From IMG/VR virus record IMGVR_UViG_3300006226_001721, positions 10,314-74,313 of that record: DNA of 64,000 nucleotides; one strand, given 5' to 3'. The first letter of the stretch is position 1. Each line of letters begins with the position of its first letter. A model generated the notes under the pieces. That model made no database searches. It saw only the letters and a program-made list of their open reading frames with translations, and was not told where the DNA came from. The stretch comes from a virus. A program made the translations under genes and the position numbers. Below, piece after piece: positions 36,293 to 63,949 of the stretch.

Positions 36293-37705
36293 TTATACAG
36301 TCAATCCAACTGCGTGGTTGACAAGTTTCTTCTTATCTGTTGTTCCATCCAACTGCATATTGAAAGCTACATCCAACCGTTTCTTAAAGTCCGGGCCAGG
36401 TTTCAACCCCTCAGCTATCAAATGAACTCCAGTCACTATTGGCTCTGGCAGTACTTGACCAAACTGTTTCACCAAGTCAGTCACACACTTATCAAAGTCT
36501 ATCATATCTTTCGTATTAGGTACACCATTCGATGCAGCAGTTCCCAAAGTATCACAAGCAGACAAGTTGAACAGTAAGTGAAAGTCTTTGCTTCCCAACA
36601 GTCGCCGTATCTTATGTACTTTCTTCATTTTCGGCAAATCATGAGCATTCATGTGCCGGCGAACTAAAGAAGCAACTCGATCAACTATCTCAGAAGGGAA
36701 CCGCATCCTCACTAGTATCTCTCTAGTCAGATCAGCACCAACTGTATCGTGATTTAGAAAGCGGCTACTACCATCAGTTTTCTTCTCACGGCAAAAAGGC
36801 TTTCCAATATCATGCAACAAAGCGGCCAACATTAGAACCAACTTCTCATTGTCATCTGCCAACGGAGCATCGAACTTACCAACTTGTCCACCACAAACTA
36901 CATCATTTGCTGCTTGAAATACGAACATAACATGGGCTAATATCGTATTGCCGAAAGGCTTCATTGTCTCAGTGTGCCAAGAGTTGTTGTGTGCCTCGTG
37001 CAGTCTTGCGGTCTCAGGAATTAGCATCTGCATTATGTTCAACTCAAACATGAGCTTAACTGTTTCAAATGCAGAAGGACCAATTAGCAACTTACTCAGC
37101 TCAGCAGTGATCCGCTCCTGACTCACACCAGAAAAGCTGCAGCCATTTAGCACGAACTTCTCAATGGCCTTCATTGCTGCCTTGTCTAAAGTGAAGCTCA
37201 GTTGACTCATGAAGCGAAAAGCACGTAAGATCCGCAACTTGTCTTCGGTGATTCTGTCTATTGGGTTACCAACAAAACAGATCTCCTTATCATGAATGTC
37301 AAGAGTTCCAGCAAATGGATCTCTCATTATCTCCTTAATAGGATCCCAAGCCATCGCATTCATTGTGAAGTCGCGCCGTGCTAAATCTATCTCAATGTCA
37401 CGGACAATCTCTATACCATCCGGCCTGCGACCATTTCCGCCAATATCTTTTCTATACTGGGCGATCTCATAAGGAATGCCATTCACAACAACGGCTGTTA
37501 TTCCAAAAGCCTCACCAATTTCTAACACCTGAAAATCTGCAAAGATGCGCTTAATGTCAGCAGGTGATGCATTGCTTGTCAAGTCAATATCGTGAGGTTC
37601 TTTACCCATTTGAAAGTCTCTGACTGCTCCACCTACTACATAGCACTCAAAGCCATTAGAGTTCAGACGGCTAGCAATCAGATTAACGTTTGCATTTTTC
37701 TTCAT
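36293..37705 (-). CDS. cca: CCA-adding tRNA nucleotidyltransferase with HD domain
   Basis: VGGAVRD, DIDL, DLARRDFTMNAMA, EDKLRILRAFRF, ERITAEL, HDIGKP. Confidence 0.88.
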   Translation of the reverse strand: MKKNANVNLIASRLNSNGFECYVVGGAVRDFQMGKEPHDIDLTSNASPADIKRIFADFQVLEIGEAFGITAVVVNGIPYEIAQYRKDIGGNGRRPDGIEIVRDIEIDLARRDFTMNAMAWDPIKEIMRDPFAGTLDIHDKEICFVGNPIDRITEDKLRILRAFRFMSQLSFTLDKAAMKAIEKFVLNGCSFSGVSQERITAELSKLLIGPSAFETVKLMFELNIMQMLIPETARLHEAHNNSWHTETMKPFGNTILAHVMFVFQAANDVVCGGQVGKFDAPLADDNEKLVLMLAALLHDIGKPFCREKKTDGSSRFLNHDTVGADLTREILVRMRFPSEIVDRVASLVRRHMNAHDLPKMKKVHKIRRLLGSKDFHLLFNLSACDTLGTAASNGVPNTKDMIDFDKCVTDLVKQFGQVLPEPIVTGVHLIAEGLKPGPDFKKRLDVAFNMQLDGTTDKKKLVNHAVGLTV

Positions 37706-52262: not shown

Positions 52263-52281
52263 GTTATTTAGTTATATTAAC
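52263..52281 (-). promoter_or_regulatory. Compound promoter GTTAATATAACTAAATAAC upstream of the RNA array
   Basis: Identical 19-mer at 53798-53816 upstream of the DUF2828 gene. Confidence 0.7.
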
Positions 52282-53777
52282 ACGATTGGTTTGTACCTTT
52301 CGCTATTTAATATCTCCAATAAGGCTTGATATGGATCAAGAGTTCCACTCATCACCATTTTGATTAAGTTGATGCTAAAGCCGCTCACTAAAGCTACTCC
52401 GCATTCGTTTTCTACAACAGGAATTGCTCCAGTTCTACTGTTCACATTCCAAAAGATCAAACGTGGAAGTTTGTAACCTAAGTTAGCATACTCGTTTGCT
52501 ATGTGTTGAAAAAGCTTGACATCAGTTCGACCAGTACAAGCATCGAATTCCATATCTGAAATGATCAAAACGTTCTTAATCATTTCTTCTTGTGTCATTT
52601 TAGCTTTTGCAGCTGTTCTTAATATCAACTCAAACACGGCTTGTATGTTAGTATTAGCAACTTCATTATGTTCGAGTGCTATCAACATTTTACCTAAGAG
52701 TGACTGAGCGCTTGAAAAGTTGATCATTTGTGGTCGTTCACTGAAAGTAATGTACTTATCTTTGAAGTCACCAACATTGTGTTCGGCACAGTAGATAGCC
52801 AACGCATTAGCTATTTCTAAAGCCTGAGCTGAAGTGCCTGGAATTGTTGTCATCATTGATCCACTTCCATCTGCAACGACTAAAGTGTCTCGCAAACCAT
52901 ATTCTGGCAATGCTTTCCACATAGCTTCAATAGCTGGATCAACCTTATTATGAGTGATCTTTCGTGACCATGGATCCATCTTACAACCATATTGATGCAC
53001 TATATCGTGTGGAAATGCTACTGATGCATTGATCTTAGCTTCACCCTTTTCAAGCTTACCAAGATACTCACGTCGTCTTTCTTCATCATTCTTTAAGAAC
53101 GCGTTACGATACTTTAAGTTTGCCATTGATGGTACATGTTCATAATTGATAGCGCCCCACTTTTTGGCGGCCGCTTTGACTTCAATAACGTCAAGATAGG
53201 CTCTTAATGATGAAAGCATCTTACGATAATCACGTTCTTTCATACTCAAAGCCATTGCTAACTTACGAGCCATTTTACGAACACCAGCTGAACTAGTGTT
53301 GACGCTTGGCATCCATTTAGCACAAAGTGATGCTGGCTTTCCAGCCTTCATTGCGATAACGTCATCATTTAGCTGCTTAGATAAGATAGCCACAACTTCT
53401 TCTTGAGCTGAGTCGAACGCGATAAGTAAGTCATCCCACCGACCATATTCTGGTACCAACTTCAAAAGTGGCTTAACGCGAACATCTAACGTAATAAGTC
53501 GTTGCAAGATTGTACGGAACAAATCTCTCTCACCTAAGCCCTCTCTAACGTCTCTGACGAAGAAAAGCCACTTAACTGCTAATTCTGCATTTTCTGAGTA
53601 AGCTTTAGTAAAGTCTTGTATGATTGTTTGTTGTGAAGCGCCTCTGTAAGAAGCAACTTTGAAGTTCATGTCTAAAAGAGCACGACCTGTTGATACGTGG
53701 ACACGAGCACCATTTTCTGTATAAGCATCTCGTGATATTTCACTCTGCACGAGTTCTTTTTCGATAGCATTAATCAT
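52272..53777 (-). CDS. DUF2828-family vWA/TROVE-like protein
   Basis: VRDVREGLGER, VPEYGRWDDL, AKWMPS, DGSGSM (MIDAS), TFS, IISDMEFD, FWNV, SGFS. Confidence 0.8.
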   Translation of the reverse strand: MINAIEKELVQSEISRDAYTENGARVHVSTGRALLDMNFKVASYRGASQQTIIQDFTKAYSENAELAVKWLFFVRDVREGLGERDLFRTILQRLITLDVRVKPLLKLVPEYGRWDDLLIAFDSAQEEVVAILSKQLNDDVIAMKAGKPASLCAKWMPSVNTSSAGVRKMARKLAMALSMKERDYRKMLSSLRAYLDVIEVKAAAKKWGAINYEHVPSMANLKYRNAFLKNDEERRREYLGKLEKGEAKINASVAFPHDIVHQYGCKMDPWSRKITHNKVDPAIEAMWKALPEYGLRDTLVVADGSGSMMTTIPGTSAQALEIANALAIYCAEHNVGDFKDKYITFSERPQMINFSSAQSLLGKMLIALEHNEVANTNIQAVFELILRTAAKAKMTQEEMIKNVLIISDMEFDACTGRTDVKLFQHIANEYANLGYKLPRLIFWNVNSRTGAIPVVENECGVALVSGFSINLIKMVMSGTLDPYQALLEILNSERYKPIVLI

Positions 53778-53816: not shown

Positions 53817-53829
53817 ATAAACTGAAAAA

Positions 53830-53901
53830 TAGTTCCAACCGGATTTGCACCGATACTACAACCTTCGCAGGGTTGTGTGTTATCTATTACACTATGGAAC
53901 T
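53830..53901 (-). tRNA. tRNA-Arg(GCG)
   Basis: Cloverleaf; anticodon loop CT-GCG-AA; no encoded CCA. Confidence 0.9.
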
Positions 53902-54118
53902 AAAAGATACGCCAAGGCCGTAGTTGCTTAAGAAAAAAGATAGAAAAGTATATAGCAAAGTATGGCCACATTAGAAAGCACAACATAAAATGAAGCACTT
54001 TTTCACTGAGGAGTTCTACTGAATCTTTTAACGCTAATTCATTACAAACGGCAAATATCATGCCAATAACAAAATAAGAAATCAAATACATCATATCCGA
54101 TCCTAACAGGAATTGCAC
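53900..54118 (-). CDS. Small membrane protein
   Basis: Two hydrophobic segments between tRNAs. Confidence 0.45.
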   Translation of the reverse strand: MQFLLGSDMMYLISYFVIGMIFAVCNELALKDSVELLSEKVLHFMLCFLMWPYFAIYFSIFFLKQLRPWRIF

Positions 54119-54169
54119 CCATATTCCTGGTTCCGAAGACCAGTGTCTTATCTGTTAGACGATAGGACC
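54098..54169 (-). tRNA. tRNA-Arg(TCG)
   Basis: Cloverleaf; loop CT-TCG-GA. Confidence 0.9.
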
Positions 54170-54304
54170 TCAATCAAAAATATCTTCTAATACTTCTTCT
54201 ATTTTCTCAGGTATATCTTCAAAAATAACTTCAGGTACCTTTTCAAATAAAAATTCTGGTACATCCTCAAAAATAAAATCTAATAAACCCATTTAAATTC
54301 CTTT

Positions 54305-54377
54305 TACCTCCAGAGAGAATTGCACTCCCGACCAACGGATTAGAAGTCCGCTACTCTATCTCCTGAGTTATGGAGGC
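54305..54377 (-). tRNA. tRNA-Arg(TCT)
   Basis: Cloverleaf; loop CT-TCT-AA. Confidence 0.9.
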
Positions 54378-54725
54378 GTTCATAAACTTCGCTCTATCTC
54401 GAAATAGGCGATCAATATCTTTTTGTACATCTGTTAAGTCACTTTCTACAATGATAAGACCATCATTAGGAGTTGCCCAAACTGAAATGAAGCAACAGTC
54501 AGGATCATCATAGTTGTAGTTGAAAGTGATCTCTGGTTCTCTGTGCCAGATGACATCTAATCCATCTTCTCCTAGAACGATATAGATATCTGAATCTATC
54601 ACATTAGCCAACTTTTCTAAGAATTTGGCTGATAGTGTCATATTCAGCTTTATCTTACCATAAAGTTGAATGTATCGCTTTATAGCATCTTGCATCTTCA
54701 AATCTAACATATGTAGTGTTATCAT
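54351..54725 (-). CDS. Hypothetical protein
   Basis: ORF whose 3' end overlaps tRNA-Arg(TCT). Confidence 0.45.
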   Translation of the reverse strand: MITLHMLDLKMQDAIKRYIQLYGKIKLNMTLSAKFLEKLANVIDSDIYIVLGEDGLDVIWHREPEITFNYNYDDPDCCFISVWATPNDGLIIVESDLTDVQKDIDRLFRDRAKFMNASITQEIE

Positions 54726-54878
54726 AATAAATAGTAACGGATGGGAACAACCGCCCTTCACTCGATCGATTGAATGGGTCCGTCAACTCCATAAGACAGT
54801 TTGCTATGATTGTCTCCTAACACAGAACGTAACGTGTTCATCTACGTCACAGTCTACTACTATAGTCTCGACTGTTAG

Positions 54879-54951
54879 TCAGAACGGCTGGATTTGAACC
54901 AGCGACATCTTGGCTCCAGACCAAGCAGGCTCCCAACTGCCCTACGCTCTG
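54879..54951 (-). tRNA. tRNA-Pro(TGG)
   Basis: Cloverleaf, C1-G72, A73; loop TC-TGG-AG. Confidence 0.85.
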
Positions 54952-54962
54952 ATACGGGTGAT

Positions 54963-55124
54963 ATGGATAGGAAATGGATTGGACCACTCATCTTTTACAC
55001 ATAGTATGATTACTCCTGTTTTCGTCATACTGTCTACTATTCTCTTAACTAGTATGGGTGAGAAATACGTAGAACCCTCTTTGCACTCCTGCTAGTGTAA
55101 CTGTTTTCTTTAAACTACTATCCA
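54963..55124 (-). ncRNA. tRNA scaffold with a 96-nt insert replacing the anticodon loop
   Basis: Acceptor TGGATAG/CTATCCA, D stem GTTT/AAAC, anticodon stem TTACA/TGTAA, degenerate T arm. Confidence 0.6.
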
Positions 55125-55130
55125 AGCTAT

Positions 55131-55288
55131 TCGACAAGGTAGAGTTACGAACTCTCATTTTCTGCAAAGGTGTTCAACATCAGCGTCGACTATGCCAACG
55201 TTGAATGAAGGGCTTATCAGTGTCCGGATTGTTGCCCACACTCATCTCTCTCCGATATTGCAGCTGTTTTTCATTAAACTACAAGTCG
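55131..55288 (-). ncRNA. tRNA scaffold with a 90-nt insert replacing the anticodon loop
   Basis: Acceptor CGACTTG/CTTGTCG (two U-U), D arm nearly identical to its neighbour, stem CTGCAA/TTGCAG, T loop TTCGTAA. Confidence 0.55.
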
Positions 55289-55405
55289 TTAAAATGTGGG
55301 CTTTCCACCCACTCTGGGATTCCACCAGTTGGCTCATTACTAGTTCACCTCACCTGTTAACTCAGGGACTCTCGAAAGAGCGGAGTTTAGTGAACATCGC
55401 AAGAT

Positions 55406-55478
55406 TGGACCTGACGCGATTCGAACGCGCATTTCACTCCTTGCAAAAGAGGACGATAGCCTTTATCGTAACAAGCCC
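55406..55478 (-). tRNA. tRNA-Ala(TGC); an alternative register would read GCA
   Basis: G3.U70 and A73 Ala determinants; loop TT-TGC-AA. Confidence 0.7.
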
Positions 55479-55483
55479 AAAAG

Positions 55484-55681
55484 CAGGAACTGTCTAAGGC
55501 GACACTAGACGAACAGCTCCTATTGTACGCATCCTCACCAGGCCTTACGTAAGTATGTAGTCGCAAAGTGTGGATCTAAGATCTTTATTGAACGACTATA
55601 TCCTCGGCCATACTAAACCGGACCTGGTAACTTTAGTCCAGGCTACATAACAGATACTAAACTCCCTAGGGTTTTTCTGCT
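55484..55681 (-). ncRNA. Unassigned structured RNA between tRNA-Gly and tRNA-Ala
   Basis: AGCAG/CTGCT closing helix, CCTGG/CCAGG, TAGTCG/CGACTA, GGAGCTGT/ACAGTTCC. Confidence 0.45.
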
Positions 55682-55686
55682 GTTTG

Positions 55687-55759
55687 AGCGGGTAAGGGGA
55701 ATTGAACCCCTGACAACAAGTTTGGAAAACTCGTACTCTACCAACTGAGTTACACCCGC
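55687..55759 (-). tRNA. tRNA-Gly(TCC)
   Basis: Cloverleaf; loop TT-TCC-AA; U73. Confidence 0.92.
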
Positions 55760-55766
55760 AAAAATG

Positions 55767-55848
55767 CACCGGTCCGCGGGCTTAGCACCCACGGTCCGGC
55801 GTCTTAAACTATTTTGACGTACATAGTTCATGACGCTATGCAACCGGT
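55767..55848 (-). ncRNA. Degenerate tRNA-like element
   Basis: ACCGGT/ACCGGT acceptor, ATAG/CTAT D stem, extended T stem CCGTGGG/CCCGCGG, 12-nt anticodon loop. Confidence 0.4.
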
Positions 55849-55849
55849 T

Positions 55850-56515
55850 TCTATCCCGTCGGATCTTTTCCAGGATAACCTTCAACCTGCTGGCTGCCAA
55901 ACTATGGGCATTTAAAGCGGTACCTCTACCAGAATTTCTACTAATTTGAAGCTGCAGCAATTACCCGCACTTATGACCTTTTGAGTCCACTTCTTATTTC
56001 CACCACTTAGTATGCCGCAATTCGGCGGGTGCGGCTCACATTCACTTTTAGACCAACGAACGTGAAAGTCATGGATATACAGACGAACGACCATCTGCTG
56101 TTAGTCCTTCTGCCCTCCGGCGAACCAACTCCCAAACTGACGTCTCTACTCGTCCAACATTTGGGTATTTTCTACTAACAATAAAGTTCAAGGCTTAACC
56201 GATTCGCGGTACCACCTTTTACTTCACTATCAATAACGGTCAATAAAAGCCGCGCTTACTTAATATACCGCCAACGCGTGGGTCACGGTCAGGATTACAC
56301 TTCCGTCATATCTTGGTGGTCCAGCGACCTGTTGGTAACTCTACACCTAATGTCACATCCTAATAAGTTCTACCAAGTGGCTCGTACCAATAGAGCTCTT
56401 CTTGCAGCCGTAAGCTTGAATTAAGTCCCTGATCCAGATACTCACCACCTCCAGCGGCCTGTTGGCAACTCTCAGCTTGTTATATCCGCTAGCAGGAGCG
56501 GCTCTCGGTTTCCCT
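55850..56515 (-). ncRNA. Candidate large structured ncRNA (or cluster of them)
   Basis: No credible ORF, GC-richer, starts at the early promoter, 22-nt repeat at 56321-56342 and 56451-56472. Confidence 0.4.
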
Positions 56516-56517
56516 TA

Positions 56518-56554
56518 CATATATCATATAAGATTAGATCTTATATCGTTCAAA
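56518..56554 (-). promoter_or_regulatory. Sigma70-like early promoter, copy 3
   Basis: Same 37-nt layout as 5436-5472. Confidence 0.7.
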
Positions 56555-56661
56555 ATACTATGCTGGCAAGAGGTCTTGCACCATTCAACTATCTTTACGC
56601 TCGAGCCGTAGATAAGTCTTCGCCCCTTCGTTTCGTCTCCACTACTCCGCCGGCTTCCAGC

Positions 56662-56847
56662 TTATATGTACTCCGTCAGATCTTCTTCTAACGGCGTAAT
56701 TGCTATTCCATACTTCTTTTTGAGACGATATCCCTCTTCTAGAATGCCGTCTTCTAAACCATGATTGTAACCATTAGCATAACCTATCTTCATAGAAAAG
56801 ACAGCTACCAAGATAAGTCCAACTAATAGCAAACTATACGCTATCAT
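56662..56847 (-). CDS. Small membrane protein
   Basis: N-terminal TM helix. Confidence 0.5.
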   Translation of the reverse strand: MIAYSLLLVGLILVAVFSMKIGYANGYNHGLEDGILEEGYRLKKKYGIAITPLEEDLTEYI

Positions 56848-57017
56848 CGGCTAACTTGTCTATGGCTTTACGTATGGCTGATGCCATGTTGTGGACATCA
56901 TTTGTAGTTTCACATTGATTGAAAAGCTCTGTCATTCGTTTAGTCAGTTGATGTAGAGCATTAAAGATGATTGTTGGCTTGTTTTCTTCCATAATGATAT
57001 ATTAACATTAGTATAAG

Positions 57018-57138
57018 TCCGCCAGACAGGGTTTGCACCTGTACGATGGTCTAGCCATCAGCAGGCTATACTCACCAGCCCTCCGGCCTTAAGGTTACAT
57101 ATAGTTCCCGCCGCGTCTCCTATTTTCGCCACTGACGA
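57018..57138 (-). ncRNA. tRNA-Leu-type scaffold with a 41-nt anticodon loop
   Basis: Leu-type D arm TGGCGAAAATAGGAGACGC, stem GCGGG/CCTGC, long variable arm, T arm ACAGG-TGCAAAC-CCTGT, A73. Confidence 0.65.
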
Positions 57139-57213
57139 CAGAGCCGCCGCGATTTGAACGCGGAATTACCTGATTTGGAGTCAGGAGGCTTAGCCAATTA
57201 AACCGACGGCTCT
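57139..57213 (-). tRNA. tRNA-Trp(CCA)
   Basis: Cloverleaf; loop CT-CCA-AA; G73. Confidence 0.9.
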
Positions 57214-57505
57214 ATTTTAATGGACGGATATACTGTCGATAAGTGTTCCAAGCTTGAACTGGAGTTGCATCACCGAAGACAAATCGTGTCCTATACTGTC
57301 CGCAACAGCAACACTGAAGTTGCTCTCCGCATGTACAACAAGTGGAAGAAGACTGTCCGGCATTTTGTTCCAAACGCCATTTTTCGTATTCTTGTAAGAA
57401 GAACTCTCTCATAGTAGTTGCGCCTGTGTAGTCGTACATCTTCCAATTATCAGGTTGCTTCTTTTCTTTGTGTACATAATGACAATGGTTATGTTTGCAT
57501 TTCAT
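57212..57505 (-). CDS. Cys/His-rich hypothetical protein
   Basis: CKHNHCH and CCTC...CCCC; ACTAACTA motif 2 nt before ATG. Confidence 0.5.
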   Translation of the reverse strand: MKCKHNHCHYVHKEKKQPDNWKMYDYTGATTMREFFLQEYEKWRLEQNAGQSSSTCCTCGEQLQCCCCGQYRTRFVFGDATPVQAWNTYRQYIRPLK

Positions 57506-57823
57506 ATTAGTTAGTAACGCTTCTTCGGTGGCTTTACATCTTTAAGAAGATTCTCTATTTGGTACATCTCTCTTAAGACGTCTTCCTCTCTACTCTTATT
57601 CCCATTCTCTCTAGCATAAATGAGTTGGTCTATCTTCCTCTTATAGATTTTACGTAAATGATGTTCAGATAGGCCCTCATACCCATTCATTTACTCTCCT
57701 ATAACATGTTGATCAGCTGTATTACTAAATTTCCTATGCTACCAACAATAATGATGCTTGTTCCTATTAGCATCAATAGTTCATATTTCCTTATTGACAT
57801 ATTATCCTCTCTAAATTAAGATA

Positions 57824-57895
57824 GGTGACATACGGGAATCGAACCCGTGTATCAAGATCCACAATCTTGCGCCTAAACCACTCGGCCAATGCCAC
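57824..57895 (-). tRNA. tRNA-His(GTG)
   Basis: Cloverleaf; loop TT-GTG-GA; C73. Confidence 0.9.
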
Positions 57896-57949
57896 ATACG
57901 GAATAGATGGTTCTGCCCCACCGCCGTAATTCTTTACGCTTGCTTTCGC

Positions 57950-58432
57950 CTAGCTGTCCAACCCATAATAGAATATGCCGTTGTCCTGCTTTTTACTCCG
58001 TTCTATTTTCTTCATTTCTTTTTCTATTTCTTCTTTCTTATATTCTAATTCCTTTATCGACCTATATGCTTGCCAATGTTCGTTAAAGTTGATAGATTCT
58101 TTGAACTCCTCAAACCATTTACTTTCGCGCTGTTCTGTTTCTGAAAGCTCTCTTTCTTTTGACCAATACTTAGTCGGATGGCCTTTCCCAACAACAAAAG
58201 CATAGCTAAAAAGAACAAGCCCTGCAATGAGATACAGTCCACCTATAAAGATCGTTATCACTAAGTTCATCCAACCCATCCCCCAGATGAATCTACTTAA
58301 TGTCCAAAGTTCTTGCGGATTCATTAGAATGGCTCCTAACAATGCAAACATCAAACAGAAAAAGCCATTACAGGCTGCATAAAAGTAGACTGTCTTTTTG
58401 ACGATAGACCTTATCTCACTATAACTAAACAT
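57950..58432 (-). CDS. Membrane protein
   Basis: Two TM segments plus a coiled-coil tail. Confidence 0.55.
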   Translation of the reverse strand: MFSYSEIRSIVKKTVYFYAACNGFFCLMFALLGAILMNPQELWTLSRFIWGMGWMNLVITIFIGGLYLIAGLVLFSYAFVVGKGHPTKYWSKERELSETEQRESKWFEEFKESINFNEHWQAYRSIKELEYKKEEIEKEMKKIERSKKQDNGIFYYGLDS

Positions 58433-58443
58433 ATTACTCCTCT

Positions 58444-58514
58444 AGCAGAAGGCCGGTAACGCTCCGGCATCACGTATTTGGCAAACACGTATCTTTCTGT
58501 TGGACCACATCTGC
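58444..58514 (-). tRNA. tRNA-Gly(GCC)
   Basis: Cloverleaf; loop TT-GCC-AA; U73; atypical T loop AGCGTTA. Confidence 0.8.
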
Positions 58515-58647
58515 ACGACACTTAGAACACAGTCCATATTCATAGACTGGGTTATCTAAATCTTCTCCTTCTTTAACGTCGTGTTCTATTACGTCCCCAC
58601 ATATAGAACACCATACCACCCTACTCATCTCTTTCCCCCTTTTTCGA

Positions 58648-58718
58648 TACTCGATAAAGGATTTGCACCTCTGCGAAAACGGTGTAAACGTTCCATGCTC
58701 CTGTTACATCAATCGAGC
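58648..58718 (-). tRNA. tRNA-Val(TAC)
   Basis: Cloverleaf; loop TT-TAC-AC. Confidence 0.88.
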
Positions 58719-58755
58719 ATATACCAGATAAGGGACTTGCACCCTATACTCTTTT

Positions 58756-58829
58756 TACACGGGGTGAGATTCGAACTCACACTACTAAGGGCCTAAACCT
58801 TATGACTCCTTCCGTTGGTCTACCCGTGC
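58756..58829 (-). tRNA. tRNA-Leu(TAG) with a short variable loop
   Basis: Cloverleaf; loop TT-TAG-GC; 5-nt variable region. Confidence 0.8.
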
Positions 58830-59453
58830 ATTATATAGTAATTTTTTGGACTCATTATATCTCCAAAAATCACAATTTAATTTTTCTATAATAATATTTT
58901 GTCTTATTATATCTTTTTCTTTTAATTCACCATTTATATAATGTTTTGGTTCATCATATTCAAAAACTATGTTTAATTTAGCATCATACCCATCTAAAAA
59001 ATAACCACAAAATGTAAATTCACCACCATTTAAAGCATGTTGTAAATTCCAATTTTTTTCTTTATTAAGTTTATCAATAAAATCACAAGCTTTTTTATTA
59101 AAATTAGCTCCTCTATTTTTACCTGTAAGTTTTAATCTTTCAATAAATATTAGTCTTAATTTCTCTTTAGTTTCTTTTGATAAATTTTTATTTAACCAAT
59201 AATGACCACTTTTATTTGGATTTTTTTCACATAATTTTTCATGTAAAGAATTTCCACTATTAGTTGTTATTTTTATTCTTTTACACCACTTACATTGCCT
59301 TTTTATTTTTTCATCTCTATTACTAGAATAATTCATTTGATGACCTTCAATTCTTTTATGGTCTAAACATTCCTCCTTTGTTCTAAAAGTTTGGTTACAT
59401 ATTCTACATAACCAATTATTTTTTGAATTTCTATATTGTCTTTTTCTTTCCAT
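58800..59453 (-). mobile_element. Free-standing homing-endonuclease-like gene (C2H2 zinc finger plus Vsr/DUF559-like nuclease)
   Basis: CRIC...H...H, CKWC, LDGYD...FEYDEPKHY...KDIIRQ; very AT-rich; own ACTAATTA promoter. Confidence 0.6.
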
Positions 59454-59615
59454 AATAATTAGTACACATACTTAAATTAACTAGCACGTGTACTAATTCC
59501 GCCAATCTGGCTAAAACGGATATAGCATAAGATTCCTACTATACCCAATGGATAGCAATTCGCTGCAGCAATTCTATCCGTGGTAAGTTTCAGGCCTAGA
59601 ACTTACAAACCGGCC

Positions 59616-59701
59616 TACCGAAAGGGAGACTTGCACTCCCACGCCCCTTATTGGACACAAGACTCTCGATCTTGGGCGTCTTCTAATTCCGCCATTTCGG
59701 C
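59616..59701 (-). tRNA. tRNA-Leu(GAG)
   Basis: Cloverleaf with long variable arm; loop TC-GAG-AG. Confidence 0.85.
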
Positions 59702-59958
59702 TTTTCTTGCTTTCGTCTTTTTAGCTTGGCATCTTTCACAAACTACATAGACATCCTTTTGTCCATCCTCGTCACTAGCGATAAGTCTTACAACCTGTCT
59801 ACAACTAGTACACCACTCTATTATGCTCCCCATGCTGATCACCTCTTACACATATTTAGTAAGGCATGATGTCTAAAATGATGGTCAATCTAGGGAGATA
59901 GAAGGCACTCTCCAGTCCTTCCACGGAAGTTTGAGGGAGCTTACTTCTAACCACATTA

Positions 59959-60033
59959 AGTCCCAGGAGGGAATCGAACCCTCTAAACATCTGCTTTGCA
60001 GGCAGTGCGCCAGGCCACTAACGAATCCGAGAC
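59959..60033 (-). tRNA. tRNA-Cys(GCA)
   Basis: Loop CT-GCA-AA; U73. Confidence 0.85.
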
Positions 60034-60284
60034 ATAAAGTGACGTTTTAACTCCAGTCGAGTGATCCTGTCGATCCGTCACGTAATTAGTCGGGCGGTCC
60101 TTTTTAAGTAGTCACCGCCTGCCTACTGACATTGGTTGTTGACGGAGTTACCAACCTCTTCTCCGACATGACTTACATGCTTCATAGTTAAGCACCTTCC
60201 GAGGGATTATGTTCTACTTAACTATTGGGGATGCACCGGTTACAATGCAACCTTCCACCATCTGCTTTAATCTAAGCAGAAAAT

Positions 60285-60857
60285 CTAAAACCCAAACAAA
60301 GACCATTCCGGTTGATGAACCGTAACGGACGCTTTCAACTTTTGCATGTTAGATAGAACTGGCTTAGTTGGCATGAACTTTGGTTTGACTTTCATCTCAC
60401 TCAATGTCTTATCACCTTTGTCCCAGTTGCATCTTTTGCAACATGTCACCATATTCTCCCAAGAACTCCGTCCTCCTTTTGAAAGCGGAATTACGTGATC
60501 GATAGACAATTTGCCTTCACTGAATACATCACCACATAGATAACATGTGTAATGATCTCGCTCATATATGCTCTTCCGAGAAAGTCTAAATGACACTTTC
60601 GGAACTTTGTCATATCGAAGATAACGAATGACCTTTGGAATAGCTATTCGCTGTGATACTGAGTTGATGAACTCTGTACCTTCCGGCCACTTATCTTGTA
60701 ATGATAGATTAACCCAATCATCCCAATTCATAGGAGTCCAACTATCTCCCATTATGTACATTGCCTCCACGGCACCTGTGTACATCTTACCAATCGTGGC
60801 ATATTTGCTACACAATCTTATGGGGATATAGCTTTTGTTCAATGCTAAAACTTTCAT
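60285..60857 (-). CDS. HNH endonuclease (start moved to 60857)
   Basis: VLALNKSY, RKSIYERDHYTCYLCG, IDHVIPLSKGG, NMVTCCKRCN. Confidence 0.9.
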   Translation of the reverse strand: MKVLALNKSYIPIRLCSKYATIGKMYTGAVEAMYIMGDSWTPMNWDDWVNLSLQDKWPEGTEFINSVSQRIAIPKVIRYLRYDKVPKVSFRLSRKSIYERDHYTCYLCGDVFSEGKLSIDHVIPLSKGGRSSWENMVTCCKRCNWDKGDKTLSEMKVKPKFMPTKPVLSNMQKLKASVTVHQPEWSLFGF

Positions 60858-60872
60858 CTTAAAACTCCTAAA

Positions 60873-60945
60873 TGCGCGAGGGTGGACTTGAACCACCAAC
60901 CTTTACCTTATAAGAGTACTGCTCTCACCATTGAGCTACTCACGC
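60873..60945 (-). tRNA. tRNA-Ile(TAT)
   Basis: Cloverleaf; loop CT-TAT-AA; A73. Confidence 0.85.
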
Positions 60946-60949
60946 ATGT

Positions 60950-61220
60950 AGTCCATCCTGAAAAGCGGCTTGCCGCATTGTCGCATTCGGTAGGACGCCG
61001 TTATCTTCTCTTTCAGTAACTCTTTTGAGCTCGCGCCACTCCTGGTCGCATTCGTGGCTCTCAATTAGTGTTTCAGGCTTGGCAGTAGCTGTACTGATGC
61101 CTCGGCTCTGCTGCGTGGTCACTAATCCCGGGATTTCTAACGTTGCCCGGATCTCAATTCAGCGGCTATTTGCTAGATTGCCTCCACATTCTTCTCAGCA
61201 GGCTGCCACAATCTCACTTT
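60950..61220 (-). ncRNA. Unassigned GC-rich structured RNA between tRNA-Ser and tRNA-Ile
   Basis: No credible ORF; CGAATGCGAC repeated at 60980-60989 and 61045-61054. Confidence 0.4.
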
Positions 61221-61240
61221 AAGTCTATAGCTAGACACTT

Positions 61241-61324
61241 CGGAAAGAGGGAGACTCGAACTCCCAGTACCTTGCGGTACACACAGTTTAGCAAACTGGC
61301 CGACTACCATTATCACATCTTTCC
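61241..61324 (-). tRNA. tRNA-Ser(GCT)
   Basis: Long variable arm; loop TT-GCT-AA; G73. Confidence 0.88.
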
Positions 61325-61505
61325 ATCTAATCAAATAACTCAGCACCTTGTGTTCGTTCTAGTGTTCTCATTCTAACGAACTTTTGCCATTCTGGACTTT
61401 TTCGTATGTACTGATAGTAACGAGAAAGCCAAACTGCGTCTTTTTGCTTACACGCTTTCATCACATGGTCTGGAGTTAGCTTTCTAACATCGTCTAGTGC
61501 TCTCA

Positions 61506-61745
61506 TTAGTCAAACAACTCCCACACTTCTGGTTGATCCTCTGGCTTATTAGATAGTACAGCACTAAATAGATCATACAGATCTTTATGATACAGATCAC
61601 AATATCCAACACATAACTCCTTATCACCATAAGACAACCCCATCTTTCTCGCTTTGAAGTACTTACATTTAGTTTCACATACGATCCTTATAGACGGATC
61701 TCTAACATACTTCTTCATCTCATCACGAGACACACAATTTAGCAT
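61506..61745 (-). CDS. Cys-rich hypothetical protein
   Basis: GAGG SD; several Cys pairs. Confidence 0.45.
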   Translation of the reverse strand: MLNCVSRDEMKKYVRDPSIRIVCETKCKYFKARKMGLSYGDKELCVGYCDLYHKDLYDLFSAVLSNKPEDQPEVWELFD

Positions 61746-61915
61746 ATATTACCTCAATTTTCGTTTGGCAGAACTATACTGCTCTTTGAACAATATGTCA
61801 AACTCTACTCTTGACAGTTTCTTTTCGGCACCTGTTACTTTGTTCACTAATAGGTACTCCTTTTTGTGGCAATCATATGAGATAACTGTGAACTCAAATG
61901 ATGCATGAGCCGGCT

Positions 61916-62581
61916 TCAACTTTTGCATTCTTCATAAACCTCTGTAAAATTAACACCATACTTATTAGTTGCATAATTAATATATGGTTCAATATCAACA
62001 TTATCAATAATAACAAGTTTGTGTTTAAATGCTGCTATTTTTGCCTTTGTTTGTTGATCATAAGCGCCCCTTTTTCTTCCTTTAATTTCATAATAAGTAT
62101 CTCCTATAAGAAAATCAGGATAATATTTCCTATTTTTTCCTTCAAACAAATATTCAAATCCTTCATTATTTCTTATTGGCTTGATTCCATTATCTAATAT
62201 CTTAATAAGAAAAGCAAGTTCCCACGAACTATCACAAAAAAATCCTTTATACCATCCTTTTTTTCCTCTTCCACTTCCATGTCGCTTTCCTCCAATAGTT
62301 CCTTTTATCGATGCTGTTAGTCTTATCTTTGCTTTTGTTTCTTCACTAACAGTATGTCCTATACAATCAACTCTATTAGGATTTTCTTTACAATATTTAA
62401 CATGATTAGATCCTCTTTGTTCTTTACAAAATGGACATTCTCTTTTACTTGAATTTTTTCCCTCAGTTCTATGATTAGGATTTTGATTAAAATGTTGTTG
62501 TAATAGTTTTCTTGTAACAAAAATTTCATTACAAGTTTTACAGAGCCAACCACCTTCTTTTCGTTTTCTATTATCTTTCAT
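61916..62581 (-). mobile_element. Free-standing homing-endonuclease-like gene (C2H2 zinc finger plus PD-(D/E)xK nuclease)
   Basis: CKTC...H...H, CPFC, DSSWELAF, YYPDF...YEIKG; AT-rich; ACTAAATA promoter. Confidence 0.6.
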
Positions 62582-62622
62582 ATTATTTAGTTAAATTAAC
62601 AATCAAGACTATAAGAACTTAC

Positions 62623-62714
62623 CGGAAAGTGTAGGATTCGAACCCACGGTACCTTTCTCAAGGTACTCTCGATTTCAAGTCGAGTGCATTTTATCCAGAC
62701 TCTGCCAACTTTCC
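62623..62714 (-). tRNA. tRNA-Ser(TGA)
   Basis: Long variable arm; loop CT-TGA-AA; G73. Confidence 0.9.
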
Positions 62715-62772
62715 ATTACGTTCAATTTCAATTTAGGTAGAAATACCACGCGGGACCTAACAACACCTTTTT

Positions 62773-62888
62773 GGCAATATGGTAGGATTTGAACCTACGA
62801 CCACTGGATTAACATTCCTGATAGTAATTGCGGTAAAAGCCGTTACACGGCTCACTTTTAAGCGCTCTACCACTGAGCTACATATTGC
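62773..62888 (-). ncRNA. tRNA-like RNA (GTT, Asn-type anticodon arm) with a 42-nt insert after position 26
   Basis: 8-bp acceptor GCAATATG/CATATTGC, canonical D and T arms, CAGGA-ATGTTAA-TCCAG arm, insert 62821-62862. Confidence 0.6.
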
Positions 62889-62891
62889 TTC

Positions 62892-62962
62892 TGAGCCCGG
62901 GTGGAATCGAACCACCATAACAAGATTAAAAGTCTTGGGTACTACCATTGTACTACGAGCCC
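62892..62962 (-). tRNA. tRNA-Lys(TTT)
   Basis: Cloverleaf; loop CT-TTT-AA. Confidence 0.92.
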
Positions 62963-62965
62963 ATT

Positions 62966-63153
62966 TAACGACTATAAGCAGGGTTCTGTTAGTCGACTAT
63001 CATCTGTCTATTTGCCCGCTACCTTGCATCATAGGAGAATCCATATCCTAGCTAACTTGCGGTTGCATCCTGAAGTGGTGATAACGCTAAATGCTCCCAC
63101 TACTGATTCTGATGCCCTGACTTTCCTCTCCGCAGAGCGATAGTCCGTCGTTA
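62966..63153 (-). ncRNA. rnpB: Minimal RNase P RNA (catalytic domain only)
   Basis: GAGGAAAGTCAGGGC and AACAGAACCCTGCTTAT (P4), P1 TAACGAC/GTCGTTA, P2 GACTATC/GATAGTC, P5 CATC/GATG, P15 CCGC/GCGG. Confidence 0.85.
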
Positions 63154-63225
63154 TGCCAGATGTGGCGCTCGCATCCACACTATACGATTTTCAGTCGCAT
63201 GCTCTACTACTTGAGCTAATCCGGC
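63154..63225 (-). tRNA. tRNA-Phe(GAA)
   Basis: Cloverleaf; loop CT-GAA-AA. Confidence 0.88.
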
Positions 63226-63450
63226 GAAAATAAGGAGAGTCCCAGCACTTCGCAGAGGTCCATAATCTCTTAATAGCTTTTCATCTCCTTTTTAGTTCCG
63301 CGTATTCTCCACCGTTTGGAACATCAATCTTCCTTGATGACCAGACACATTTCCACCCGTACTTGATGGAACGCCCGTCAACTCATAAGATAGGGGCCTT
63401 TATGGACTTAGCCCTTTGCGCTAAGCAGATCCTCTCGCAAGGAGTTGCTT

Positions 63451-63560
63451 TCGCGGGGAGTTGGAATCGAACCAACTGGGAGGCACAGAGACTTGCGCAA
63501 GTTTACCCTCCGACCCAAAGAAACGGAGCAACGGCTCATTGTTGTTCCCATTCTTCCGCG
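63451..63560 (-). ncRNA. tRNA-like RNA with an 8-nt acceptor strand and long variable arm
   Basis: Perfect T arm GTTGG-TTCGATT-CCAAC, CGCGG/CCGCG acceptor, CTCCG/CGGAG stem with an 11-nt loop. Confidence 0.45.
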
Positions 63561-63563
63561 ATA

Positions 63564-63949
63564 TGGAGATGGCGGGATTCGCACCCGCGTCCAAAATACA
63601 GTCAATATAACTGAATACTTACAAGGTTAGCTGAATGTTCTGCGACCTAACCGAGACATCTAAATTCAGCATGTCGTGTCTCCAGTTGCACCTTCCGTTT
63701 CATCTTAACGATAAGCCCGTTAGGACTAACTAACCGTCCAGGTTGTAGGTGTCGCCCTATCCTTCATACAACCATTTGAAGGAGGACGGGTTATGCAGCT
63801 CGTGCAAATGCTACAGCAGTTCTGTTAGAACGACCGTAGTTGTAACCTGTTGAATAATCGTTGCCAATTATCGTGTGAGCTTTTAGAGTGCCCTAACTAC
63901 ATTCCTTGTCAATTATACCACTATTATCCTGTCGAATCTATTCATCCCC
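63564..63949 (-). ncRNA. ssrA: tmRNA
   Basis: 5' GGGGATGAATAGATTCGAC, 3' GCGAATCCCGCCATCTCCA, G3.U70; tag ORF 63791-63865 (A)GNDYSTGYNYGRSNRTAVAFARAA*. Confidence 0.92.

Follow-up and report, generated by a model that had tools for sequence, protein, structure and literature searches.

What is encoded in the 188 nt between tRNA-Phe(GAA) and tRNA-Lys(UUU) in the tRNA array of a large phage, and could it supply the phage with an RNase P of its own? RNase P is the RNA enzyme that trims new tRNAs, and its RNA is considered a housekeeping ribozyme of all cells. A first-pass annotation of the 64,000-nt stretch of viral DNA analysed here (the window) had proposed that this interval is a phage RNase P RNA without the specificity domain (S-domain). 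In this study, Infernal matches, helices checked by hand and the covariation seen in ten relatives agreed that the element, as judged from its sequence, is a bacterial type-A RNase P RNA consisting of the catalytic domain (C-domain) only, phage-encoded and embedded in a tRNA array; its catalysis is untested. The match to RNase P RNA is far beyond chance.

The miniature RNase P RNA gene occupies 63153-62966 on the minus strand. Its 5' end, 63153, directly follows the discriminator of tRNA-Phe (63225-63154), P1 closes at 62966, and after three nucleotides (AAU) tRNA-Lys starts at 62962 (Infernal). The 5'-to-3' order on the minus strand is thus tRNA-Phe(GAA), the 188-nt element, AAU and tRNA-Lys(UUU); the ARAGORN and Infernal coordinates agree with the flush start and 3-nt gap described in the first-pass annotation. 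The comparison with the Rfam RNase P models that it had suggested was run with Infernal. RF00010 (bacterial class-A RNase P RNA) matched 63153-62962 at 58.3 bits over model positions 1-367, which is the whole model, with an E value of 4e-17 on 901 nt and of 1e-18 on the whole 94-kb record, where the match is single-copy. It was also the best match kept for the element within the Rfam RNase P clan. The score falls below the gathering threshold for RF00010 (100 bits) only because the specificity domain is missing, and a search of Rfam at gathering thresholds called tRNAs and the tmRNA only, with no RNase P RNA. In the cmscan alignment, CR-I (GAGGAAAGUC.GGGC), CR-V (AACAGAACCC.GCUUA), J5/15 (GCAA) and the L15 GGUA match RF00010; J18/2 is aligned as well, but has AGAU in place of the bacterial consensus GAAU. 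The same alignment replaces 140 specificity-domain model positions by 38 nt, leaves out the entire P18 hairpin of the model and reduces P3 to a stub. A plain minimum-free-energy fold of the 188 nt gave z = -0.9, which is uninformative for this element because P4 and P6 are pseudoknots. The parts of the RNA are listed in Table 1.

Table 1. Positions of the miniature RNase P RNA, its parts and the flanking tRNA genes in the window
Feature	Position	Strand	Basis or remark
Whole RNase P RNA gene	62966..63153	-	RF00010 58.3 bits; R1 137.8 bits
tRNA-Phe(GAA), flush upstream	63154..63225	-	ARAGORN and Rfam; T-loop UGCGAGC non-canonical
tRNA-Lys(UUU), 3 nt downstream	62892..62962	-	Rfam tRNA 67.2 bits; ARAGORN
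P1 5' strand UAACGAC	63147..63153	-	pairs with 62966-62972
P1 3' strand GUCGUUA	62966..62972	-	pairs with 63147-63153
P2 5' strand GACUAUC	63139..63145	-	pairs with 62995-63001
P2 3' strand GAUAGUC	62995..63001	-	pairs with 63139-63145
Minimal P3 CUC-UGCG-GAG, 3 bp, UNCG-type tetraloop	63128..63137	-	read from sequence
CR-I AGGAAAGUCAGGG, P4 5' strand with bulged U	63115..63127	-	cmscan consensus match
CR-V ACAGAACCCUGCUUA, P4 3' strand	62975..62989	-	cmscan, helix table
P5 5' strand CAUC	63111..63114	-	pairs with GAUG 63066-63069
P5 3' strand GAUG	63066..63069	-	followed by J5/15 CAA 63063-63065
P6 pseudoknot 5' strand AGAAUC	63105..63110	-	complementary to GAUUCU in P16/17 loop
P6 pseudoknot 3' strand GAUUCU	63036..63041	-	within P16/17 hairpin loop
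35-nt hairpin replacing P7-P14 (specificity domain)	63070..63104	-	folds alone, GUGG/CCAC-centred, -7.0 kcal/mol
P15 5' strand CCGC	63059..63062	-	pairs with GCGG 63016-63019
P15 3' strand GCGG	63016..63019	-	pairs with CCGC 63059-63062
Single P16/17 hairpin UAGGA-loop-UCCUA	63032..63050	-	covaries
GGU of L15 loop	63021..63023	-	aligns to consensus GGGUa (cmscan); in all relatives
J15/2 GCAAAUAGACAGAU, P18 absent here	63002..63015	-	cmscan deletes P18

Which parts of a bacterial RNase P RNA does the element keep? The helices P1, P2, P3, P5 and P15, which the first-pass annotation had named, were all recovered by hand and scripted helix checks and by covariation. Its reading of P4 as two conserved strands with a compensatory change was also borne out. 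The strands, AAGUCAGGG at 63123-63115 and CCCUGCUU at 62983-62976, form AAG-U-CAGGG / CCCUG-CUU with the bulged U present, meet the CR-I/CR-V criterion and carry a C-G to A-U double change. Beyond that list, the element has the P6 pseudoknot and the P16/17 hairpin, keeps the GGU and lacks P18. The L15 GGU, which pairs with the tRNA 3'-CCA (3'-RCCA) in bacterial type-A RNAs, lies just 5' of the P15 3' strand. J5/15 CAA (the A248-equivalent region, CR-IV) is present in all family members, and P18 is absent from all relatives as well as from the element. The interval between the P5 strands (63070-63110) is indeed 41 nt long, as had been stated, but not all of it sits in the place of an S-domain: because its first 6 nt (AGAAUC) form P6, the S-domain remnant is the 35-nt hairpin. 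The GUGG/CCAC stem of this hairpin also forms a P8-like hairpin in the larger relatives. P9-P14 with CR-II/III have been lost together with P18, and CR-II and CR-III have left no recognisable trace. On a published domain map, the element corresponds to a complete C-domain (P1/P4/P5, P2/P3 and P6/P15/P16/P17) minus P18 (PMC4919922).

The family sample comprises 11 sequences from six lineages: the element and ten relatives, all flush inside phage tRNA arrays. The relatives were found by blastn and by scans for patterns in which a short spacer separates the two conserved P4 strands. Three are from IMG/VR: L006 (12-kb contig with 34 tRNAs), L014 (203 kb, 96% complete) and L018 (171 kb, 89% complete). 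JGI metagenomes contributed L019, L022, L024 and L020 (identical to L021 and L023). A blastn search of GenBank with L018 retrieved the Microbacterium foliorum phages A3Wally (99.5% identical), Zooman and Big4 (both 91%) and a fourth. A3Wally, Zooman and Big4 are cultured phages, in which the RNA gene lies flush between tRNA-Arg(CCG) and tRNA-Arg(CCU). This stretch is unannotated in the three GenBank records inspected; mini RNase P genes remain unannotated in phage genomes because the Rfam threshold misses them. Every copy lies inside or at the edge of an array of 10-34 tRNA genes, with gaps of usually 0-7 nt to the neighbouring tRNAs. The element is the shortest member at 188 nt, followed by L006/L020 (192-193 nt), a group of 202-237 nt and L019 (269 nt). 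The first-pass annotation had recommended collecting homologues for covariation and had held that a lack of conservation in related phages would count against it; relatives exist and covary, so this objection fails.

A strict CR-I/CR-V pattern had no viral matches, and the AAGUU variant of CR-I had no matches; looser patterns gave three true matches (L006, L014 and L018), and the element's own type, CAAGGU...GCAAAUAG, was matched by L006 only. Fourteen other pattern loci (among them L004, L005, L007-L013 and L015-L017) were rejected as chance matches in coding sequence. Blastn of the element, of its 1.3-kb region and of the L006-type RNA against 50,697 GenBank phages returned no match. Rfam at E <= 10 missed the clear homologue L006, and therefore Rfam alone undercounts the mini RNase P RNA family. 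Among 185,579 bacterial and archaeal species genomes, no match was found in the size class of 40-70 nt between the P5 strands, and in these cellular genomes the class of 70-100 nt was represented by four rumen Bacteroidales metagenome-assembled genomes (MAGs) only. The same phage was recovered on a second assembly, ENA contig ERZ27257348 k141_2693397 (L036; 173,799 nt), where the RNase P RNA and its flanks are identical. This contig, which is nearly twice as long as the IMG/VR record, was reached by an exact-protein look-up of the adjacent HNH gene and added no new sequence variation.

Several observations concern the relatives themselves. In L014, L018, L019, L022 and L024, the segment from the P8-like hairpin to the P5 3' strand includes a single-stranded stretch, CUAAGC...(A)CUUAAAAAGCA, that is conserved among them, and in the 200-270-nt relatives a short P7-like helix covaries (GCC/GGC, CCC/GGG, CCCC/GGGG). 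The stretch and the helix may be a vestigial substrate-contact module; this module is absent from the 188-nt form. In the A3Wally record (L025, MZ150783.1, 92355-95565), the tRNA names seem to result from reading the anticodon as a codon: its tRNA-Pro(ccg) and tRNA-Pro(cct) are tRNA-Arg(ccg) and tRNA-Arg(cct) in Zooman, in Big4 and, by ARAGORN, in the near-identical L018. An RNA ligase gene follows the A3Wally tRNA array.

Is the fold of the element maintained by selection? In a helix table of eight sequences, 344 of 352 pair cells are canonical, with many double changes, and 2-4 pair types occur at the positions of P1, P2, P3, P5, P6, P15 and P16. All seven P1 pairs are canonical in 8/8 sequences (2-3 pair types per position), and P2 covaries with up to four. 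P5 has U-A in the element versus C-G in the larger relatives; P15 reads CACA/UGUG, CGCC/GGCG, CUCC/GGAG or CCUC/GAGG in the relatives, and P16/17 occurs as UAGAA/UUCUA, UAGGG/CCCUA and GGGAG/CUCCU. The P3 of the relatives has 3-5 bp with a UACG, GCAA or GAAA loop, and that of L019 is long. Even P4 varies: the second pair after the bulge is A-U in the element, G-C in L006/L020 and C-G elsewhere, and the normally invariant AAG/CUU is AGU/GCU in Zooman and Big4. P6 differs in sequence in each of six lineages and pairs in all of them (AGAAUC/GAUUCU, AUUGCU/AGCAAU, GAAUGA/UCAUUC, GACCAA/UUGGUC, CAUGAC/GUCAUG and UGAUAA/UUAUCA); shuffling of the hairpin gave p values of 0.003-0.05 per lineage and a Fisher combined p of 6.5e-6.

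The helix table was aligned by hand, with RNAalifold and model-based counts as unbiased controls. Without a supplied structure, RNAalifold recovered P1, P2 and P5 from seven sequences, and 15 of 28 pairs showed compensatory double changes. A covariance model, R1, was built from nine sequences with L019 left out of the seed; it found a single copy in the element's own record (137.8 bits) and detected L019 at 125 bits. In the R1 alignment, 92% of cells pair, compared with 73% in shuffles and 38-48% when the partners were slid; both partners have changed in 20 pairs, and none of the 500 shuffles attained the observed covariation score. The 35-nt hairpin is without covariation support, because only two lineages (the element and L006/L020) share the 188-193-nt form. 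The element is not a decaying fragment, and its fold is under purifying selection. With the RF00010 score, the checked helices and the covarying relatives, the initial identification of a 188-nt phage RNase P RNA without a specificity domain was upheld.

What kind of genome carries this gene? The IMG/VR record (93,990 nt) is estimated by CheckV as 29% complete and is labelled 'provirus'. It carries genes for NrdD, an SNF2 helicase, a CCA-adding enzyme, a UvsX-like recombinase, NAMPT and a DNA methyltransferase, and no rRNA genes were found in the 94 kb. Most of its proteins have no PHROG match, which marks it as a large, poorly sampled phage; no IMG/VR relatives of the neighbouring DUF2828 protein were found. 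The array contains ~26 tRNA genes and a tmRNA, with HNH homing endonucleases scattered through it, and extends from ~53,800 to 5 kb past the window end. No minus-strand terminator-like site was found between the tmRNA and the HNH gene, a stretch that spans the tmRNA, tRNA-Phe, the element, tRNA-Lys and the following tRNAs. A 3'-CCA is encoded in no phage tRNA gene. RnpA (PF00825) was found neither in the element's own 94-kb record, nor in the 203-kb (96%) and 171-kb (89%) relatives, nor in the complete A3Wally genome, and no RnpA or other recognisable RNA-processing protein occurs among the array ORFs. Any protein partner must therefore come from the unidentified host.

The array has further features of its own. 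Over 53829-63225 and L002:596-5228, 6 of 23 tRNAs called by ARAGORN have NGCRA T-loops, with G in place of U55, rather than UUCRA (for example UGCAAUU, UGCAAGU and UGCGAGC). A tRNA found by Rfam only, at 58648-58718, has the T-loop UGCAAAU, and that of tRNA-Gly(GCC) is AGCGUUA. Four nucleotides after tRNA-Lys, at 62774-62887 (-), lies a tRNA (Rfam 48 bits, no ARAGORN call) with an insert of ~55 nt in the region of the anticodon arm. The tmRNA at 63561-63949 (-; Rfam 87 bits) has a predicted tag ending in ...AVAFARAA versus the usual ...ALAA. Between the tmRNA and tRNA-Phe, 335 nt (63226-63560, -) have no assigned gene; their first 110 nt (63560-63451) can adopt a cloverleaf-like fold, closed by a CGCGG/CCGCG stem and including a canonical UUCGAUU T-arm, that is not significant (z = -1.2). 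A weak Rfam match to YrlA (Y RNA-like) at 62864-62917 overlaps tRNA-Lys and probably reflects tRNA likeness. Two protein genes adjoin the array, one for the CCA-adding enzyme (36293-37705, -; PolyA_pol head, RNA-binding and HD domains) and one for the DUF2828/DUF7788 protein (52272-53777, -).

What could such an RNA do for the phage? In bacterial RNase P RNA, both the active site and the site for RnpA are located in the C-domain. Given the homology, the fold, the purifying selection on that fold and the genomic setting, all of which were observed, we consider it probable that the element is a catalytically active RNA, which borrows RnpA from the host and matures the polycistronic tRNA transcript of the phage; its transcription, catalysis, partner and substrates are inferred. 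The element would be transcribed with the tRNA/tmRNA array as one long precursor. Its 5' end would be made by 3' processing of tRNA-Phe, and its 3' end by RNase P cleavage at the 5' end of tRNA-Lys. It would then most likely bind host RnpA, for which the docking surface lies in the retained catalytic domain, and the hybrid enzyme would remove the 5' leaders from ~26 phage pre-tRNAs by P4 metal-ion chemistry and GGU-CCA pairing. Since the phage tRNA genes lack CCA, the GGU contact would need prior CCA addition. Substrate choice would rest on the acceptor stem, leader and CCA only, because the domain that reads the T/D-loop elbow is missing.

Published work on truncated bacterial RNAs bears on this proposal. 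Both alone and together with RnpA, the C-domain cuts pre-tRNA, though not as efficiently as the complete RNA (PMC4919922). When isolated, C-domains have much lower activity than full-length RNAs (PMC4919922, PMC5839562), and without protein they need unphysiological salt (PMC4919922). The E. coli C-domain alone is catalytic and needs a P6-like contact (PMC5839562). P18 is useless to it once the S-domain is gone; the role of P18 is to dock on P8, and it is therefore dispensable without the S-domain (PMC5839562). In the phage RNAs, P6 is retained and P18 has been dropped, which fits this prediction. Points that speak against the proposal are the low activity of isolated C-domains, the Rfam score under the gathering threshold, the AGAU of J18/2, the lack of an RnpA gene in the phage records searched and the dependence of the GGU contact on CCA addition.

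Other explanations have to be weighed against a host-assisted enzyme. The element might be a specialised RNase P that is blind to the tRNA elbow, works without protein or with an unrecognised phage protein, and serves the G55 tRNAs, the insert-bearing tRNA-like RNAs and the tmRNA. The loss of the S-domain that reads the T/D elbow would suit such an enzyme, as would the 6/23 NGCRA T-loops, which include that of the flush upstream tRNA-Phe, the tRNA with the 55-nt insert 4 nt after tRNA-Lys, and the absence of an RnpA gene from every phage record searched. However, the T-loops of the other carriers are nearly all canonical (30/34, 29/32, 26/29 and 18/20), and C-domains without protein require salt outside the physiological range (PMC4919922). 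We therefore regard this explanation as unlikely. Non-canonical elbows were also considered as a general reason for carrying a mini RNase P and were rejected: they fit the present phage (6/23) and cannot explain the whole family, because the T-loops of the other carriers are mostly canonical. A decoy or regulator, which would titrate host RnpA or pre-tRNAs without cutting and so divert or shut down host tRNA maturation, would account for a phage that supplies RNA and not protein, and for an RNA that keeps its protein-binding catalytic domain and has lost the affinity-giving S-domain. A decoy would not need the active-site letters, the bulged U of P4, the GGU or P6, all of which are conserved or covary, and this function seems decidedly improbable.

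Two further explanations deny the phage a working gene. If the element were a functionless, decaying relic of a captured host rnpB, a score below the Rfam gathering threshold and the deletion of half of the molecule would be expected; however, the losses of the S-domain, P18 and the long P3 recur across the six diverged lineages, where every helix shows compensatory changes, the gene is placed exactly between tRNAs, and an identical copy exists on the second assembly. We judge a relic very improbable, the covariation having already gone most of the way to refuting it. The record could also be a reduced bacterial genome mis-called viral, with the element as the only RNase P RNA of the cell; the 'provirus' label, the lack of PHROG matches for most proteins and the short RNase P RNAs (258-260 nt) of four rumen Bacteroidales genomes can be cited for this. 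Against it stand 94 kb without rRNA genes, the presence of a UvsX-like recombinase, NrdD, HNH homing endonucleases among the tRNAs and a CCA-adding enzyme, the empty 40-70-nt size class in 185,579 species genomes, and close family relatives in cultured, sequenced phages. A cellular origin of the record is hardly credible.

An active RNA that borrows host RnpA thus remains the preferred explanation. A bolder generalisation can be offered only tentatively, namely that large phages carry an elbow-blind RNase P of <200 nt, either hijacking host RnpA or protein-free, which excises itself and its neighbours from the array transcript. If this were true, the phage tRNA supply would be freed from the host RNase P RNA, and tRNA shapes that the host handles poorly would be allowed.

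A full-text literature search found no publication on a phage- or virus-encoded RNase P RNA; subscription-only papers were outside its coverage. A conserved bacterial-type RNase P RNA without an S-domain would define how little RNA RNase P needs, a minimum that deletion studies have approached only with crippled constructs. The 5' maturation of tRNAs would also join the translation toolkit of large phages, which includes tRNAs, tmRNA and the CCA-adding enzyme. The unannotated relatives in cultured M. foliorum phages make the idea testable with existing strains.

How, then, does the phage RNA compare with known RNase P RNAs? With E. coli M1 RNA (rnpB, RF00010) it shares CR-I, CR-V, P1-P6, P15, the L15 GGU, the 7-bp length of P2 and the U bulge in P4; of CR-IV, J5/15 is present and J18/2 deviates from the consensus. 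Bacterial type-A RNAs are typically 340-420 nt long (PMC4919922), whereas the element has 188 nt, lacks P9-P14, CR-II/III and P18, has a 3-bp P3 and a single hairpin for P16/17, and is phage-encoded within a tRNA array. The first-pass annotation had likened it to the archaeal type T RNAs (PMC3012483; Chan et al. 2012, PMC3579882), which likewise keep the catalytic domain and have lost most of the specificity domain. The likeness stands as an analogy but not as a relation in sequence, the element being bacterial type A in this respect. Type T RNAs are archaeal in sequence, with a 3-bp P2, a shortened P15 and a 2-nt P5/P15 linker, and work with Pop5, Rpp30 and Rpp29 (PMC3579882). In contrast, the element has a 7-bp P2, a 3-nt CAA linker, P6 and the L15 GGU, with no such proteins nearby. 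Because these core details differ, the domain losses were independent.

The closest parallel in parts list, which is essentially the same, is the engineered E. coli 'CP RPR' (Mao et al. 2018, PMC5839562). CP RPR was made by deletion in the laboratory and has low activity, whereas the element occurs naturally as a conserved gene, its P3 is smaller still and it has kept a P8-like hairpin. Reduced cellular RNAs, such as those of Mycoplasma fermentans, CPR bacteria and rumen Bacteroidales, have also lost peripheral helices, including P18 and the long P3; the RNase P RNAs of CPR bacteria, for example, lack P12, P13, P14 and P18 (PMC8172020). The four rumen Bacteroidales MAGs (L028:3352-3599 (-), L029, L030 and L031; e.g. 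JAGCFX010000056.1) have genomes of 1.8-2.0 Mb, each with a single type-A RNase P RNA of 258-260 nt located 4 nt after a lone tRNA-Gly(CCC). These RNAs have a mini-P3 and no P18, their P5 strands are ~88 nt apart, and J2/4 contains an additional CCC-GCAA-GGG hairpin; they may be some of the shortest bacterial RNase P RNAs encoded by cells. They and the element have in common a tiny, tetraloop-capped P3 and the missing P18. However, the reduced cellular RNAs keep enough of the S-domain to pass Rfam (~141 bits) and are the only copy in each cell, whereas the phage RNA has been reduced much further and is a viral accessory gene.
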